The notes beneath the pieces were generated by a model. It had not been told where the DNA came from and made no database searches. It was given only the letters and a program-made list of their open reading frames with translations. A DNA stretch of 64,000 nucleotides from an uncultured Actinomycetota bacterium. Its GTDB lineage: Bacteria > Actinomycetota > Acidimicrobiia > Spongiisociales > UBA5794. The position numbers and the translations under genes were made by a program. The stretch is taken from the NCBI GenBank assembly GCA_963715255.1, contig CAVQRN010000002.1:495843-559842 (forward strand), given 5' to 3'. Positions 917 to 27,925 of this stretch are shown piece after piece. Every line of letters starts with the position of its first letter. The stretch's first letter is position 1.

Positions 917-3900
917 GTCCGCTCCTCCGATGCGAATCGGCGACTGAGGTCGACGATCATCTCCGGCGGCGGACTCCACCGGTAGACGCCGCATCGTTCG
1001 CGATCGACGATGGGAGTCTCGGCACCGATCATGCCCCGCACGAAGAGGTAGGCGGAGCCTCCGAGATGCTGCTGCGGGTCGTACCCGGGGAGCCGCCACT
1101 GCAAATACCGGTGGAGTGCGACCTGATAGATCATGGATTGCAGCAAGTAGTGGCTGTCTTCCATGACCCGGCGCATCGGTCCAACGGCATAGTCGGTGAC
1201 GCCGGGTTCCTCTCCCCGAGCGGGGAGCGTGTTCGTCTTGTAGTCCATGACGACGTAGCGGTCGTGTCCGTCTGCGCCGGGGATCGCCGCGGTGAGGTCG
1301 ATGGCTCCGGTGAGGTAGCCGCGGAACAGGTTTCCGGGCAAGTCGTCGAGGACATCCGCATAGTCCCACATCGGGTCACCGGCAGGGTGGTGGTCGCGAA
1401 GCACCCCGGCGATCTCGCGGAGGCTCACGGCCGCTTCCGAGGTGCGAACCGGGAACTCGAAGACCATCTCATCGAGCGTGCGCCGATCGGAGAGGTCACG
1501 GAGGCGCATCGCGTCGTCGCCGGGCCCGAGCGGGGTGTCGATCGTCCCGACGATCCCGGCGGCCAAGGCGTCGGCGTCCAGGTCCCACGAGCCTCGACGC
1601 ACTGACTTCTCCACCTCGGCACGGACGGCGCTGTCGAGGTCATCGGCGTCGAAGGAGACGTTCTCGAAGACATGGTGCACGAGCGTTCCGAATGCCGCGC
1701 CACGGGGAAGCGCTGCCATCGGCATCGGCAACTCGATGCCGAATTCATCCGCTCGCTCAACGTCGACGGTCTCATCTTCGCGTTGTGGTTCCTCGTCGGT
1801 GTCCCGCCTGGCCGCGATGGGGTGGCCGGGCGACAGCGACGTGAACGAGGCTCGCCGCCATTCGTAGTCGAGATGCCGGTCGAATCTGGCGACGCTGAGC
1901 GACGGCCGATCCCCGGCCGGTGGTTCGTAGCGCTCGTCATTGGGCAGATCGGTGACCGTCCGGATCTCGATGGTCCCTTCCGCACGGTCGGTGATCCAGC
2001 GAAGATGCGCCGGGTCGTCGTCTTCGGGCATGCCGCTGGTGAGGATCTGGTTGAGTTTCGTCTTCTCCACGTCTGCTGCCTCGTCGATCCACCACACGAC
2101 CAGCCGGTGCTTGGCCCGGGTCATCGCCACGTAGAGGAGGCGGCTCTCTTCGGCGTCGCTCTCCGCCATGGCCAGGTTCTGGTGAGCGGTGAGGCCAGGG
2201 GAGTCCTTCCCACCGACGTCGATGATCCGGCGACGGAACGAGCCGCCGGTCTCGGGGCCGTGGAACAGCGGGATTGGGGGGCGACGCGTGCTCCCTGCGT
2301 CCCAGAGGAACGGACACAACACAATCGGATACTCGAGGCCCTTCGCCCCGTGAATGGTCTGGACCTTGACGGCGTCGGCGTCGGTCTCCAGTCGCCGCTC
2401 ACGGGCCTCGGCCTCGTCGGCGCTGCGTTCCTTCCCGGCGTCGCGGATCGCCTCCTCGAGCCAGGTGAGTATCGACCCGAGGCGATGCTCCCTCCATGCG
2501 CCGTTCATCGCTTCGGCGATGTGGGTGAGGTCGGTCATGAGCCGCTCCCCGTCGGGACGGCGGAGGACTCGCTGAACGAGACCGGTGCGTTGGGCAAGAT
2601 CGGCGACAAGGGCTGCGATCCCGGCGGTAGACAGCAGTTCGTGCCAGCGGCGCATCTCCACCTGGAGTTCGATGGTGGCGTCGTCGTCAAGGGCGGCCGC
2701 GGTGGAGAGATCCTTGCCGACGAGGACACCGGTGGCGGCGTACCGCACGGTCGAGGCCCGGTCGGGTCGTTCGACGCCGAGGAGGAATCGTCGCCATTCG
2801 TCTGCGGCTTCCGTGACGAAGACGCTGCCGGACCTCGACGCGACCGACGGGACTCCCCTCATGCTCAATTCGGCCCGCACCAGGTCGATCTGTTTGCGCG
2901 TGCGGCACAGGACGGCGACATCGCCGGGTCCGACCGGCCGGCGTCCCTTCTCACCGTCGATCTCGATCCCCGAGTGCAGCAGCCGGACGGTTCCTGCGGC
3001 GACGTCCGCGGCGACCACGGCCGCCTGGCGTTCGGGGTTGAACGGCTTGTCTGCCGTCGTGCGTCGACTGATCGGCATCGTGGGTGCGAAGCGGCGGATC
3101 GTGAGCGGCGCCCCCGGTCCGTGAATGCGGGCATCCTCGTGGTCGGGTGCGGGCTGGACCTTTCGGTACGCGATACGGTCGTCGCCGAACGTCACGCCGT
3201 CGAACACGGCGTCCAACGCCGTGATGAGCGGCCCGTCGCTTCGCCAGTTGGTGAGCAGCGTGCGCTCGGTCTCGGCCCGGTCGACGCTCGACAGATACGA
3301 CTCGATGTCGGCACCCCGGAACGCGTAGATCGACTGCTTCGGGTCGCCGATGATGACGAGACGCGTCTCGTCGAACACGGCGTTGATGACTTCCCACTGG
3401 ATCGGATCGGTGTCCTGGGACTCGTCGACGAGGGCGACGGCGAACCGCTCGGAGAGGATCTGCCTGGCGTGTTCGCCGATCCCGGGGTCGGCAAGGGCGT
3501 CACGGGCTTCGAGGAGGAACTGGTCAAATCCTGCGCTCCCGCCCGCACGCAGCCGTCGGTCGATCTCGGTGCGTGCTGCGGCGGCGAGCTCGGCCCGGAC
3601 GGCGGGTCCCCCGTTGGTCGTGGCGGGGTCGGGGACGATGTCCGCGTCGAGGTTGGCGGTCACGGCCTTGGCGATGGCGGTGAGCGCACCGGCATCGACG
3701 AGGTCGGTCGCGTCGTCTGCGAACCGGGCGACGATCAGGTCGGAGACGACCTGCGAGATCAGTTCGGTATCGACGGCGATGGGCTCGAGATCCGGCGAGA
3801 TCCTGGCGTGGAACCCGAGGTGCGCGAGGAGCCGGATGGCGAAGCCGTGGATGGTGTAGATCTGTGCCCGGTCGAACCGGATGACGGCTTCGGTGAGGCG

Positions 3901-23649: not shown

Positions 23650-24894
23650 TCAAACGACTCGGGCGGCGGACCGGCCCGCGTTGGCCCACCCGGCGGCAAG
23701 TGCAGCCACCACGCTGAACACGAAGAACCCGGCGGCGAACGGCGTTACCGTCGATTGGATCGCCGAGTCGACGAACGGCGACAGCAACGCACCACCCACC
23801 AGGCTGATGACTCCGATCGTGGAGGCGGCCGTCCCAGCGGCGTAACCGACCTCGTCCAACGCTCCGGACGTCAGGAGCGGCGAGAGCGACGTCTGGAGGG
23901 AAATCATCAGGGTCGTTGCCAGGAAGAAGAACGCGAACGCTGGGACGCCGTCCGAAGCAGTCGTGACCAGGAGGTTCACCGCCGCTGCCACAACGAGCAT
24001 GATGAACACGCCCACCATCGTGCGACGTGCACCGATCAACCGGACCAACCGCGCGGAGACAAGCGTGAAGCCCGCCATCACGATTGCGCTGCTGGCAAAG
24101 AACAGGAAGAACGTGTCACCGTGGTCGTAGATCTCCCCGTACATGCGCTCCGACGACCCGAGGTAGGGAAGGAATGCCGCGCTCATGACCATCAGCGCGA
24201 TCGCGTTGCCAATGGTCTTGCGAGTCATCAGGATCTCACCGACGGTCTTCGCGAGGGTTCGGAGGTTGATCGGACGGCGGTCGCCCGGCTTCAGCGTCTC
24301 GGCAAGCCTCGTCGACCAGAGCGCTACCAGCATGCCGAAGACCGGCCCTACCGCGAACGTGTACCGCCATGACCCGAAACGCAGCAGCATCTGACCGAGG
24401 ATCGGGGCGAGTGTCGGCACGATCAGGAAGACCGTCACGATCACCGCCATGGCCCGTGCGAGGGCATCGCCGCGGAATCGGTCGCGGAACAGCGCCTGGG
24501 AGACGATCCGTGGTCCAGCGGCGCCGAGCCCCCACAAGAAGCGGCCGATCAAGATCCAAGTCAGCGAGGTCGCGAGCGTGGTGGCGAAGCCCGCCGTCGC
24601 GTACAGCAACAGGCCTGCCAGGAACACAGGCTTGCGTCCGAAGCGGTCGGCGAGCGGCCCGTAGATGAACTGTCCGACACCGAGGCCGGCGAAGAAGACC
24701 GTCACCACGAGTGCAACCGACGACGAATCCGACGGCAGGCCGAGGTACTCACGGAGTTCGCCGAACGCTGGGAGCATCGCGTCGATCGAGATCGCGACGG
24801 TCGCCGAGGCGGCCGCCATCAGGGCGAGGAACTCCCGACGGCCCTGCTTCCCCGCGGGCCGGCTCTCCCGTCCAGCGGCTGAGGGCTCGTTCAT
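23650..24894 (-). CDS. Bcr/CflA-family multidrug efflux MFS transporter
   Basis: SIDAMLPAF, GQFIYGPLADRFGRKPV, PTLAPILG, about 12 TM segments. Confidence 0.88.
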   Translation of the reverse strand: MNEPSAAGRESRPAGKQGRREFLALMAAASATVAISIDAMLPAFGELREYLGLPSDSSSVALVVTVFFAGLGVGQFIYGPLADRFGRKPVFLAGLLLYATAGFATTLATSLTWILIGRFLWGLGAAGPRIVSQALFRDRFRGDALARAMAVIVTVFLIVPTLAPILGQMLLRFGSWRYTFAVGPVFGMLVALWSTRLAETLKPGDRRPINLRTLAKTVGEILMTRKTIGNAIALMVMSAAFLPYLGSSERMYGEIYDHGDTFFLFFASSAIVMAGFTLVSARLVRLIGARRTMVGVFIMLVVAAAVNLLVTTASDGVPAFAFFFLATTLMISLQTSLSPLLTSGALDEVGYAAGTAASTIGVISLVGGALLSPFVDSAIQSTVTPFAAGFFVFSVVAALAAGWANAGRSAARVV

Positions 24895-25232
24895 GCGGGG
24901 TCAGACTACCGGTGGGTCTCGGGAGCGGAATTCCCGAGCACTCGGTCGCATGGTGGCCGCACCGATGGGTGGTGTGGCCACCGCGTGTGGCTGCTCGATC
25001 GGCAGTGCCTTGTCGGGAGTACGGGGTTCGTTGAACTCGATTCGCGAGTGTTCGGTCAGATCGCGCGGCGCCTCACCGAGCCCGCCGATCTCGGCAACGA
25101 TCGAATCCACACGCCGAGCCTCGCGGGATTTCGTCACCCGGACTCTCCTGATCACGAACATGGACAATCTCTCGCTTCGGTTTGTCCGACGCCAACCATG
25201 GCGCGATCGTTCGAGCGTGCTACGGTTCGTTC

Positions 25233-25439
25233 ATGGCACGACCAGGTCTGCGTCCCTCGTTCAACAACTTCCACAACAGCGATCTGCCCCTGCTCGAGAA
25301 GCTCCGTTTGGTTGCGAAGAACAACGCAATCAAACTCAAGAACGGCACATCGTGCTGCGGGAATCACGGCGAACCCGGCTGTTGAGTGGGCCCTGACGGG
25401 TCCGGTCCGGACTCCCACGATCACAGCCACGAGCACTAG
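25233..25439 (+). CDS. Small Cys-rich protein: 50 aa if it stops at TGA 25383-25385, 68 aa with a His-rich tail if UGA is read as Sec
   Basis: MARPGLRPSFNNFHNSDLPLLEKLRLVAKNNAIKLKNGTSCCGNHGEPGC-UGA-VGPDGSGPDSHDHSHEH-TAG; hairpin immediately after the UGA. Confidence 0.6.
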
Positions 25440-25487
25440 GAAATCGACGTTCGCTGGCTTCCAGCGAAGAGGATTGACCCGAGACCA

Positions 25488-25519
25488 AAGAACTCCCCGG
25501 CAACTACCGGGGAGTTCTT
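25488..25519. terminator. Rho-independent terminator downstream of lon (possibly bidirectional)
   Basis: AAGAACTCCCCGG-caacta-CCGGGGAGTTCTT, 13-bp perfect inverted repeat. Confidence 0.8.
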
Positions 25520-25555
25520 CTCAATGGTCGGTTGCGTCCGGCGAGGGTCAACCCC

Positions 25556-27865
25556 TCACGATGGCAAGGCCGGTTCGAGCGCCTTTTCGAGAACCTGGTC
25601 GATGGTATCGACGATGTGGAACGTCATCTCCTCCCGGCAGCTCTCCGGCACGTCATCGAGGTCGGCCTCGTTGCGGGCCGGCAGGATCACTTCGGTGAGG
25701 CCCGCCCGATGCGCCGCCAGCACCTTCTGTTTGACCCCGCCGATCGGCAGCACCTTGCCTTGCAGGGTGATCTCGCCGGTCATGCCGAGGGTGTGCTTCA
25801 CGTTCCTACCCAACAGGAGCGACACCAAGGCCGTTGTCATGCTTATGCCGGCCGAGGGACCGTCTTTGGGGACGGCGCCCGCAGGCACGTGGACATGGAA
25901 CTTCCGCTTCAGGTCGGCCGGATCGATCTTCAACTCATCGGCGTGCGACTCGATGTAGGACAGCGCGATGCGCGCCGACTCCTTCATCACGTCGCCCAGC
26001 TGTCCGGTCAACGTAAGCCCGGGTTCGCCGTCCATTGACGTCGCTTCGATGAACAGCACATCGCCACCGGCCCCGGTTACTGCCAAACCCGTAGCCACGC
26101 CGGGGACCGCGGTGCGGTCCTTGGCTTCGTCCCGCCAGACCTTGGGCTTGCCCAGGAAGTCCTTGACGTCGGGTTCGTCGATATCGACGACACTCGGCGC
26201 GTCGTCGCCGCGTGCGATCTTGGTGGCGACTTTGCGAGCCAGCTTGCCCAGTTCGCGTTCGAGAGAACGGACTCCTGCTTCCCGCGTGTACCGGTCCACA
26301 ACGGCGGTGAGTGCCCCCTCGGTGACGGCGATCTCCTCGGGTTCCAGCCCGGCGCCTCGGATCTGGCGTGGCAGGAGATGGTCGCGGGCGATCGCCACCT
26401 TCTCGAGATCGGTGTATCCATCGAGGCGGATCACCTCGGTACGGTCCAGCAGAGGTGCCGGGATCGTCTCCAACACGTTGGCGGTGCCGATGAACAGCAC
26501 ATCGGATAGGTCGAGATCCAACTCCAGATAGTGGTCCCGGAAGGTGTGATTCTGGGCCGGGTCGAGCACCTCGAGCAAGGCAGACGATGCGTCGCCTCGC
26601 CAGTCGGATCCGACCTTGTCCATCTCGTCGAGGAGGAACACCGGATTCATGGTTTCAGACTCGATCAGCGCCCGAACGATCCGTCCGGGGCGAGCGCCTA
26701 CGTACGTGCGGCGGTGACCGCGGATCTCGGCTTCGTCGCGGATGCCGCCGAGGGCGACGCGAACGAACTTGCGTCCCAGGGCTCGAGCGACCGACTCTCC
26801 CAGCGACGTCTTGCCGACTCCGGGAGGTCCTACCAGGAGGAGAATGGCTCCCTCCCTCAGGTTGCCGGCGTTCTCCAGACCACGGTCCTTGCGGAGCTTG
26901 CGGACCGCCAGGTGCTCGACGATACGTTCCTTCACGTCTGCGAGGCCGGTGTGATCGGCATCGAGGACCGCCCATGCTTCGTCGAGGTCCAAGTGATCCT
27001 CGGAAATCTCGCCCCAGGGAACATCGAACATCGTGTCGAGCCAGGTGCGGATCCAGGAATGCTCCGGAGATTGTTCGGACATCCGCTCCAGTCGATCGAT
27101 CTCCCGTTCCACCGCTTCACGGGCCTTGTCGGGAAGGTCGACGTCTTCGAGTTTCTGCCGGTACTCGGACGGCGCGTCGCCCTCTTCGCCGAGCTCCTTC
27201 TTGATCGCTTCGAGTTGCTGGCGGAGCAGGTAGTCACGCTGGGACTTGTCGATCCGCTCGGTGGCGCTGTCGCGCACCTTCCTGCGGAGCGTGAGATCGG
27301 CCAGCACCTCACCCATCCACGACATCAGCTTGCCGAGACGCTCGCGGATGTCGAGCGTTTCGAGCAATTCGACCTTCTGTTCGAGTGAGAGGTCCGGGGA
27401 GTAGACCGCCAGGTCGGCAAGTTGGCTGGGATTCTCGATTCCCAGGATTCGCTCGGCTACACCGCGCATGCCGCGCTGGCCCAGCACCTCACTCACGACG
27501 GCCCGATACTCGCCGACCAGTTCATCGAGCGCTTCATCGTGTACGTCGGCTTCGGGGTACTGCTCGGCGTCGACCCAGAGCGCTCCGCGATCGCCGATCC
27601 GGCCGGCGCCGACCCTGGCTCGGGCCAGACCTTCAACGACGATATTGCCGCCGTCGGCATCCTGAATCTGCGCAACCGTACCGACGACGGCGTAGGTCCC
27701 GTTCACCTTGGGCACCAGCAGCATCAAGCCATCGGACTGCTCGGCGGCGGCCACCGCCGTGGTTCCCTCTTCGGTTTCGATCCGAAGCGTGACCACCATG
27801 TGGGGGAATACGACCCCGTTGTGGAGGGGTAGGACCGGTAGGGTGAGTTCTCGAGTGTCAGCCAT
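25556..27865 (-). CDS. lon: ATP-dependent Lon protease
   Basis: LPVLPL N-domain, GPPGVGKTS, RGHRRTYVGA, LLEVLDP, HVPAGAVPKDGPSAG catalytic Ser, GGVKQK. Confidence 0.97.
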   Translation of the reverse strand: MADTRELTLPVLPLHNGVVFPHMVVTLRIETEEGTTAVAAAEQSDGLMLLVPKVNGTYAVVGTVAQIQDADGGNIVVEGLARARVGAGRIGDRGALWVDAEQYPEADVHDEALDELVGEYRAVVSEVLGQRGMRGVAERILGIENPSQLADLAVYSPDLSLEQKVELLETLDIRERLGKLMSWMGEVLADLTLRRKVRDSATERIDKSQRDYLLRQQLEAIKKELGEEGDAPSEYRQKLEDVDLPDKAREAVEREIDRLERMSEQSPEHSWIRTWLDTMFDVPWGEISEDHLDLDEAWAVLDADHTGLADVKERIVEHLAVRKLRKDRGLENAGNLREGAILLLVGPPGVGKTSLGESVARALGRKFVRVALGGIRDEAEIRGHRRTYVGARPGRIVRALIESETMNPVFLLDEMDKVGSDWRGDASSALLEVLDPAQNHTFRDHYLELDLDLSDVLFIGTANVLETIPAPLLDRTEVIRLDGYTDLEKVAIARDHLLPRQIRGAGLEPEEIAVTEGALTAVVDRYTREAGVRSLERELGKLARKVATKIARGDDAPSVVDIDEPDVKDFLGKPKVWRDEAKDRTAVPGVATGLAVTGAGGDVLFIEATSMDGEPGLTLTGQLGDVMKESARIALSYIESHADELKIDPADLKRKFHVHVPAGAVPKDGPSAGISMTTALVSLLLGRNVKHTLGMTGEITLQGKVLPIGGVKQKVLAAHRAGLTEVILPARNEADLDDVPESCREEMTFHIVDTIDQVLEKALEPALPS

Positions 27866-27899
27866 GCAAGCCTCTCTTTTCACGGTTGGTCCGACCTGC

Positions 27900-27925
27900 A
27901 ACCGGATGTGTCTACCCCGTATTCC
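27900..27925 (-). promoter_or_regulatory. SigR/SigH-type ECF promoter for lon
   Basis: Minus strand GGAAT-N18-GTT (GGAAT acggggtagacacatccg GTT), about 35 nt upstream of the lon ATG. Confidence 0.7.

Follow-up and report, generated by a model that had tools for sequence, protein, structure and literature searches.

The gene considered here is a short open reading frame (ORF) that appears to continue beyond an internal UGA codon. It lies on the plus strand of a 64,000-nucleotide stretch (the window, to which all positions below refer) from an uncultured Actinomycetota bacterium of the class Acidimicrobiia, corresponding to positions 495,843 to 559,842 of contig CAVQRN010000002.1 in assembly GCA_963715255.1. 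The 50-codon ORF at 25233-25385 starts with ATG (25233-25235) and ends in ...TSCCGNHGEPGC, followed by TGA at 25383-25385. Its 50 sense codons (25233-25382) specify two predicted helices and then the motif CCGNHGEPGC, which holds Cys41, Cys42 and Cys50, the last encoded by TGT at 25380-25382. Reading through the TGA gives ...PGC-U-VGPDGSGPDSHDHSHEH and then TAG (25437-25439), the true stop, for a total of 68 residues. The full coding sequence (25233-25439) comprises the 50 codons, a selenocysteine (Sec) codon for residue 51, which would form a Cys-Sec dyad with Cys50, 17 tail codons and the TAG. The tail (25386-25436) consists of the linker VGPDGSGPDS followed by HDHSHEH. The linker overlaps a putative selenocysteine insertion sequence (SECIS), a hairpin at 25398-25414 with a 7-bp stem GGGUCCG/CGGACUC (arms 25398-25404 and 25408-25414) and an apical loop GUC (25405-25407), to which an optional outer helix between GUGG (25386-25389) and CCAC (25415-25418) can be added. 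A sequence-only reading of this DNA had proposed these elements, and the coordinates of the ORF, the TGA, the tail, the TAG, the hairpin arms, the loop and the outer pairs were all confirmed in the sequence. Comparison with relatives makes it almost certain that the locus is a real selenoprotein gene with a SECIS.

Homologues were collected by whole-genome searches in six frames in which stops were read through. The close-kin set comprised 61 genomes, namely the window's own genome (G000) and 60 close relatives; 22 of them gave a match, and 20 loci were left once two matches (L033, E 1.5e-3; L034, E 4.8e-3) had been dropped as spurious on inspection of their sequences. The codon after PGC is TGA in 19 of these 20 loci and TGC in one. 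Profile searches found 27 carriers among the 401 genomes of a class sample, with TGA in all, and 74 carriers among the 401 genomes of a phylum sample, with TGA inside every match; the genome searches gave one match per carrier. Published genomes supplied 104 resolved loci, of which 103 have TGA directly after PGC, one has TGC and none has TAA or TAG, as the sequence-only reading required of a Sec codon. This tabulation took in 60 places in published genomes that the searches had returned without a locus. One locus that the motif search left unresolved (L143 in G436) stands outside the 104, as do the unpublished genomes G039 and G050, counted in the 61-genome tally, and G680, G641, G508, G569 and G514, counted in the phylum tally. 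The stops that end the tails of the same loci are mixed (TGA 79, TAG 21, TAA 3), and since genuine tail stops vary in this way, an ordinary stop after PGC would not be expected to be TGA every time. The family is spread over many family-level groups with identities down to about 40%, its members align through the TGA over the whole length (matches reach query positions 53-68 of 68), and the tail frame is open in every homologous locus. Judged by this comparison, the UGA at 25383-25385 is a selenocysteine codon, and translation runs on through the hairpin into the His-rich tail to end at the TAG.

Protein databases hold the same family in shortened form. A word-based search returned 75 proteins, 74 of which end at ...GC, in keeping with the earlier expectation that gene callers would truncate the product. 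The remaining one (P0028) has Cys at this point and then a His-rich tail. When 1.84 billion representatives were searched exhaustively with a profile, 452 clusters scored E <= 0.001. Among the best 150 of the 452 representatives, 129 and one motif variant end exactly at ...GC, and eight have Cys after ...GC (P0028, P0080, P0084, P0086, P0094, P0097, P0159 and P0174). Trp stands at the Sec position in five of these best 150, Arg in one and Gly in one; the remainder are broken or unrelated, and fused forms were absent from the same 150. The Trp entries are P0105, P0107, P0109, P0161 and P0185, and P0107 has a second Trp at the place of the tail's TGA stop, which suggests that TGA was called as Trp by gene callers using a TGA=Trp code on those contigs. 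The sources, which are Acidimicrobiia, Actinomycetota or unclassified 'bacterium' metagenome bins, name all of them 'hypothetical protein'. The tails of the Cys forms are mostly His-rich, but they lack the SGPDS/EPGRG-type motif of the Sec forms. This motif is the stretch encoded by the hairpin, and its loss from Cys forms is expected if what constrains the stretch is RNA structure and not the function of the protein.

The criteria of Haft and Gwadz for a bacterial selenoprotein gene, as worded in the accessible text of their preprint, ask for at least ten candidate examples, TGA at the Sec site in all of them, and similarity through U with Cys homologues of like length (bioRxiv 10.1101/2022.07.06.499078). 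The present family offers 104 resolved loci and 452 clusters at 50% identity, a TGA in 103 of the 104 loci with a Cys codon in the remaining one, and eight Cys forms of 66-77 residues with tails, most of them His-rich.

The RNA that follows the UGA is conserved in its own right. At the window locus the distance from the UGA is 13 nt to the start of the hairpin and 19 nt to the loop G. RNAalifold applied to 20 sequences returned the same helix, with compensatory changes in four of six pairs, and 86.8% of the cells of the specified helix are paired in 20 sequences and 89.3% in 41; the hairpin alignments include two rows from the unpublished G039 and G050. The covariation score was reached by 0 of 500 shuffles and every slid control scored much lower, while a weaker measure, pairs changed on both sides, was reached by 7 of 500 shuffles with 20 sequences and by 162 of 500 with 41. 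A strict scan for a perfect stem of at least 5 bp and a loop of 3-6 nt opening with G then U, the loop starting 14-30 nt after the codon, was passed by 83 of the 104 loci, as against 826 of 11,646 control TGA sites in the flanks (7.1%). In those 83 loci the stems measure 5-9 bp and the loop starts 17-22 nt after the UGA; the loops across loci are GGUC (32), GUC (19), GUU (18) and CGUGA (7). The downstream frame and hairpin, whose conservation the sequence-only reading had proposed to examine, are retained, the frame in all loci and the strict hairpin in these 83.

Section 5 of a 2026 catalogue gives the bacterial SECIS (bSECIS) consensus as an apical loop of 3-9 nt with an upper stem of 4-16 bp, a G at loop position 1 or 2 that is usually followed by G or U, a distance from UGA to loop of 16-37 nt, and an energy of at most -7.5 kcal/mol (PMC13188914). 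On these four counts the window hairpin shows a 3-nt loop on a 7-bp stem, GUC, 19 nt and -9.6 kcal/mol. Four loci (L126, L129, L130 and L140, in G477, G449, G463 and G433) carry the motif CCDHPGEPGC-U, end in CU-M or CU-K followed directly by a stop, and have a GGUC hairpin after that stop, in the 3' untranslated region; their genomes are small (1.3-1.8 Mb). Since in these four the hairpin sits behind the stop, it is kept as RNA and cannot be conserved for its peptide. By comparison, then, the 7-bp hairpin with its GUC loop is a bacterial SECIS. A scan of 25100-25600 against Rfam at E up to 10 returned three chance rows and no SECIS family. Such an absence is usual for bacterial SECIS elements.

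The machinery needed to read the codon lies outside the window, in the same genome (2.35 Mb in 13 contigs, 82% complete), where the sequence-only reading had advised looking for it. It includes tRNA-Sec (56.6 bits against a threshold of 47), selB (286 bits, directly after selA), selA in a frameshifted state and selD (389 bits). The selD gene has an in-frame TGA of its own in a GSGU-ACK motif, followed by a hairpin whose 7-bp stem begins 27 nt past the UGA and closes with a G-C pair on a GUU loop; its apex, G-GUY-C, is the same as that of the window hairpin. This selD (G000:C6:184752-185681, L003, with the TGA at locus position 1531) is itself a selenoprotein gene. Among the 61 close-kin genomes, the window's own included, selB is over the cut-off in 59 and selA in 57. 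In the phylum sample selA is found at E <= 1e-30 in 267 of 401 genomes, and carriers have it more often (70 of 74) than non-carriers (197 of 327). Among carriers without selA, G508 and G607 have tRNA-Sec and selD, and G650 has selD and a selA fragment. By established bacterial Sec decoding, SelB carrying Sec-tRNA(Sec) would bind the hairpin apex and deliver Sec to the ribosome paused at the UGA.

Several observations pull the other way. The genomes compared are kin and not independent, and counts such as 103 of 104 overstate the number of separate events. The strict perfect-stem scan was failed by 21 of the 104 loci, although in most of these the same hairpin is present, with a single mismatch or with a stem of 4 bp. 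The competing hairpin GGGCCC-UGAC-GGGUCC, which the sequence-only reading had already pointed out, is real, and at -15.9 kcal/mol it is the minimum-energy fold here; the SECIS-like hairpin has -9.6 kcal/mol alone and -12.8 kcal/mol with the outer GUGG/CCAC pairs. In the window's genome selA is split between two frames, C13:105942-106370 and 106381-107244 (L001/L002; 262.5 and 106.4 bits), and a strain with a real frameshift there could not make Sec. An assembly error is favoured, because genomes of the same genus have an intact selA of about 441 codons. One tail-less carrier, G477 (91% complete), has neither selA nor selD over the cut-off and a tRNA-Sec only below threshold. The sole Cys codon seen at the DNA level (TGC; L023 in G007) belongs to a copy with a non-homologous 5' third. 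This copy, in which hairpin and tail persist, could start only at a GTG, two codons upstream of which lies a stop; it may be decaying, since its promoter, start and first 20 or so codons are non-homologous.

The alternative is that the TGA is an ordinary stop. The product would then be a 50-residue peptide ending in PGC, the hairpin a terminator or regulatory RNA, and the tail frame a side effect of the RNA structure and of the scarcity of stops in GC-rich DNA. In keeping with this, 74 of 75 database proteins end here as annotated, these genomes use TGA more than any other stop (79 of 103 tail stops), and the hairpin is GC-rich and placed at the 3' end of a small gene. Such a stop would nevertheless have to be TGA in all 103 TGA-form loci, though 24 of their 103 tail stops are TAG or TAA. 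It would also have to coexist with eight Cys-form representatives that are continuous ORFs through a tail, mostly a His-rich one, and with a tail frame that is open in every locus and far richer in His than the core (17.2% against 2.7% in 104 loci). A terminator accords poorly with a hairpin that is followed by no T-run and was negative in the terminator scan, while its loop position and sequence fit the SECIS model. Taken together, this makes an ordinary stop very improbable, and the locus is treated below as a selenoprotein gene.

The gene probably stands alone, with a leaderless mRNA starting at or next to the ATG. A -10-like hexamer, TACGGT (TANNNT), occupies 25221-25226 on the plus strand, 6 nt upstream of the ATG. 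A TANNNT ending 6-8 nt before the start is present in 34 of 38 loci with a definable start, as compared with 118 of 16,419 background positions (0.7%), and this spacing fits leaderless actinobacterial mRNAs. The hexamer is absent from L029 and L031, which have purine-rich stretches resembling ribosome-binding sites before the ATG. A scan for E. coli-type promoters and terminators found no sites. In L018 (G014) and L022 (G018) a single-base shift puts the conserved ATG and -10 hexamer out of frame with the rest of the gene; these frameshifts, near codons 6-9, may be genuine or may come from the assembly. RNA libraries of three studies contain contigs over 25255-25471 that span the TGA and the tail, with 25383-25385 unchanged. 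They are a weak sign of transcription, because DNA can occur in such libraries.

An AlphaFold2 model built from an 18-row alignment places helices at residues 7-15 and 20-37, followed by coil, with pLDDT (predicted local distance difference test) below 50 for the last residues. Invariant positions in alignment A2 are N12, N30, C41, C42, G43, G49, C50 and position 51. The protein is taken to be cytoplasmic, because no hydrophobic segment or signal peptide is visible in the family sequences. The tail varies in length from 1 to 83 residues, with 8-43 residues after Sec in most members, and holds at least three His in 68 of 104 loci. Of the CC...CU selenoprotein with a His tail that the sequence-only reading had put forward, the Sec protein stands (103 of 104 TGA), whereas the His tail is not universal (20 of 104 lack His). 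The His-rich tail is an accessory and not part of the protein core, because of those 20 loci and of the four lineages that end one residue after Sec. At the other extreme, the frame after Sec stays open for 83 codons in L056 (G391, locus 1279-1680, minus strand). This long tail has the look of a coiled coil and a helix-extended-helix element, its Pfam hits are sub-threshold coiled-coil ones, and it may represent either a fusion or a frame left open by chance in GC-rich DNA.

As to function, the protein may be a metal chaperone or a redox carrier, the two roles already named from the sequence, as we infer from its sequence features. The role proposed here, for which the case is appreciable if somewhat short of probable, is soft-metal binding or transfer by the CC...CU centre with help from the His tail. 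The flexible C-terminal segment would present two vicinal pairs, Cys41-Cys42 and Cys50-Sec51, eight residues apart; their four thiolate and selenolate groups could form a binding or transfer site for a soft metal (Cu(I), Zn, Ni, Cd or Hg), and the His-rich tail could help to capture the ion. The CU dyad is described in the accessible text of Haft and Gwadz as rare and mostly found in selenoproteins linked to mercury or organometals (bioRxiv 10.1101/2022.07.06.499078). Three observations count against a metal role. Neighbours, operon partners and fused domains conserved across the family were looked for and not found, confidence in the structural model is only moderate (mean pLDDT 64.5), and His is missing from the 20 tails mentioned above. 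In its fullest form the proposal would make this the first bacterial selenium-containing micro-protein of metallothionein-like or metallochaperone type, which would buffer or pass on a soft metal, translated from a leaderless mRNA and a main reason why many uncultured Actinomycetota keep the Sec machinery. As a whole that is doubtful; its last part, if true, would follow from the family being widespread and almost always in the Sec form.

A redox role for a real selenoprotein is a rather unlikely but serious competitor. Cys50-Sec51, perhaps together with Cys41-Cys42, would cycle between the selenenylsulfide or disulfide and the reduced state, the small protein would shuttle electrons or scavenge peroxide, and its tail would exist mainly because the SECIS has to be translated. 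The arrangement can be likened to the C-terminal Gly-Cys-Sec-Gly of animal thioredoxin reductase, since G-C-U followed by a small residue occurs here as well. The four tail-less lineages and the 20 of 104 tails without His also suit a tail of little importance, and section 7 of the 2026 catalogue regards most prokaryotic selenoproteins as likely redox proteins (PMC13188914). The protein, however, has no thioredoxin-like fold, no CxxU or UxxC motif and no reductase or peroxidase neighbour, and the His enrichment (68 of 104 tails and most Cys forms) suggests selection beyond a spacer. An iron-sulfur cluster held by the four Cys/Sec ligands, possibly between two chains, in a small sensor or electron carrier would suit the four invariant positions with their CCG triplet. 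That triplet is reminiscent of the cluster-binding CCG domain of heterodisulfide reductase B, and Actinobacteria have small four-Cys cluster proteins such as WhiB. Such a cluster is nonetheless improbable: no Pfam family, the CCG domain family included, was hit at E up to 10, two vicinal pairs would offer a poor geometry for a single cubane cluster, and the family has no uniform oxygen-sensitive niche or gene context. The size of 50-70 residues, the helical N-terminus and the Cys-rich disordered C-terminus would also suit the precursor of a ribosomally made peptide, with a helical leader and a Cys/Sec-rich core for modification, and a selenobacteriocin family is listed in Table 1 of the catalogue (PMC13188914). 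Yet conservation is equally strong in the presumed leader and the presumed core, the gene has no recurring neighbour that encodes a modifying enzyme, a transporter or an immunity function, and there is one match per carrier across the phylum (74 of 401 genomes), which leaves a peptide precursor with hardly any likelihood.

Within the reach of the searches made, this selenoprotein family, which relies on the ordinary bacterial Sec system, is undescribed. Searches of Pfam-A and NCBIfam (release 20) with the 50-, 67- and 68-residue forms matched no family up to an E of 10 and, with 18 members at E up to 1, nothing apart from one chance row (E 0.26). Foldseek with the AlphaFold model gave no match below E 6 against the PDB, and a sequence-profile search of the PDB gave nothing at E up to 10. 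In the 119 families and subfamilies of Table 1 of the 2026 catalogue (PMC13188914) no row fits, and the domain models that it names were not matched. Nothing like it is mentioned in the accessible parts of the papers on GOS, deep-Sep and BSepDB, full-text literature searching gave no paper carrying the motif strings of the family, and the sequence is absent from the main texts of the papers that this searching found on selenoproteins and Acidimicrobiia. One large protein, P0206 (890 residues), has about ten repeats each holding CCVGNQGLASCC and matches the Cys-rich part of the profile at E 2.4e-10. The likeness is probably an unrelated low-complexity similarity.

The closest known counterparts are KCU-star/DUF466 (NF033934) and SaoC (NF040734), which likewise have a Cys-Sec dyad at or near the C-terminus, Cys-Cys in their non-Sec forms, and database entries truncated at the UGA. 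Neither has sequence similarity to the new family (18 members scanned), most members of which differ from both in carrying a translated tail of 8-43 residues after Sec. SaoC resembles the shortest forms found here in that the SECIS follows the stop; as far as the text of Haft and Gwadz could be consulted, its SECIS combines a GGU loop with a 7-bp stem, SaoC, unlike the new family, carries a signal peptide and belongs to a nine-gene transporter locus, and Sec is the exception in SaoC (3 of 52), whereas it is the rule here (103 of 104) (bioRxiv 10.1101/2022.07.06.499078). The hairpin itself shares with the canonical bacterial SECIS (E. coli fdhF type, bSECISearch consensus) its position as a stem-loop inside the coding sequence just 3' of the UGA, an apical loop of 3-4 nt starting with G then U or G, and a spacing of 17-22 nt, but it is a short, simple 7-bp helix. 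The GGUC loop resembles the fdhF apex.

Among His- and Cys-rich metal-handling proteins, the family can be compared with Helicobacter Hpn, the tails of HypB, UreE and SlyD, and the mycobacterial metallothionein MymT, with which it shares such traits as short length, flexibility, His richness, vicinal Cys pairs and a cytoplasmic location. No homology to these was found in the PDB profile search at E up to 10, and the new family differs in its conserved helical N-terminal part and its selenocysteine. A further candidate comes from Actinomarina, where the available text describes an uncharacterised 78-residue selenoprotein predicted by deep-Sep as the most abundant family (bioRxiv 10.64898/2026.04.03.716425). 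It too is small, unannotated, without UniRef or KEGG assignment and from an Acidimicrobiia lineage; compared by description only, it may or may not be the same family.

Occurrence in 74 of the 401 sampled phylum genomes makes this a common selenoprotein of uncultured Actinomycetota. The databases contain hundreds of its clusters, nearly every one of them ending at the Sec codon and labelled 'hypothetical protein', so that annotated versions lack both the active-site residue and the tail. A full-length family profile would correct this annotation. Search methods based on abundant Cys homologues would tend to miss the family because it is almost always in the Sec form, and the deep-Sep paper, in its available text, states its own reliance on abundant Cys homologues (PMC12013277). 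The tail-less forms with a hairpin behind the stop provide a natural experiment on SECIS requirements, and a Cys-Sec dyad near a Cys-Cys pair provides a simple system for studying the contribution of selenium to metal or redox chemistry.

The genes that flank the locus are on the opposite strand and encode a transporter of the major facilitator superfamily (MFS; 23650-24894) and Lon protease (25556-27901). This MFS/lon arrangement is common to only the five closest genomes. Partners were sought in three rounds of ORF clustering, which covered 20 loci with 1.5-kb flanks and then 21 and 41 loci with 6-7-kb flanks, and the clusters revealed family-level synteny with housekeeping genes only. The neighbours differ between families: lon and the MFS gene in one, uppS, nfo and pyrE in another, and mdh, icd and sdh in a third, all of the last six named by reading the printed sequences and not by family search. 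In L019 (G016) a downstream ORF on the same strand resembles by eye a molybdopterin oxidoreductase of the biotin-sulfoxide/trimethylamine N-oxide (TMAO) reductase type, which was not seen in the other families. Runs X1-X5 gave small word shares only, and no habitat is drawn from them.

Two inverted repeats, neither of them called by the terminator scan, lie between the gene and lon. The first, at 25452-25466, reads CGCTGG-CTT-CCAGCG, and the second, at 25490-25517, has a perfect 11-bp stem GAACTCCCCGG/CCGGGGAGTTC with a 6-nt loop. In two studies the RNA-library contigs stop just past the first repeat, at 25469 and 25471, and these contig ends and repeats before lon may mark transcript ends or a two-way terminator.

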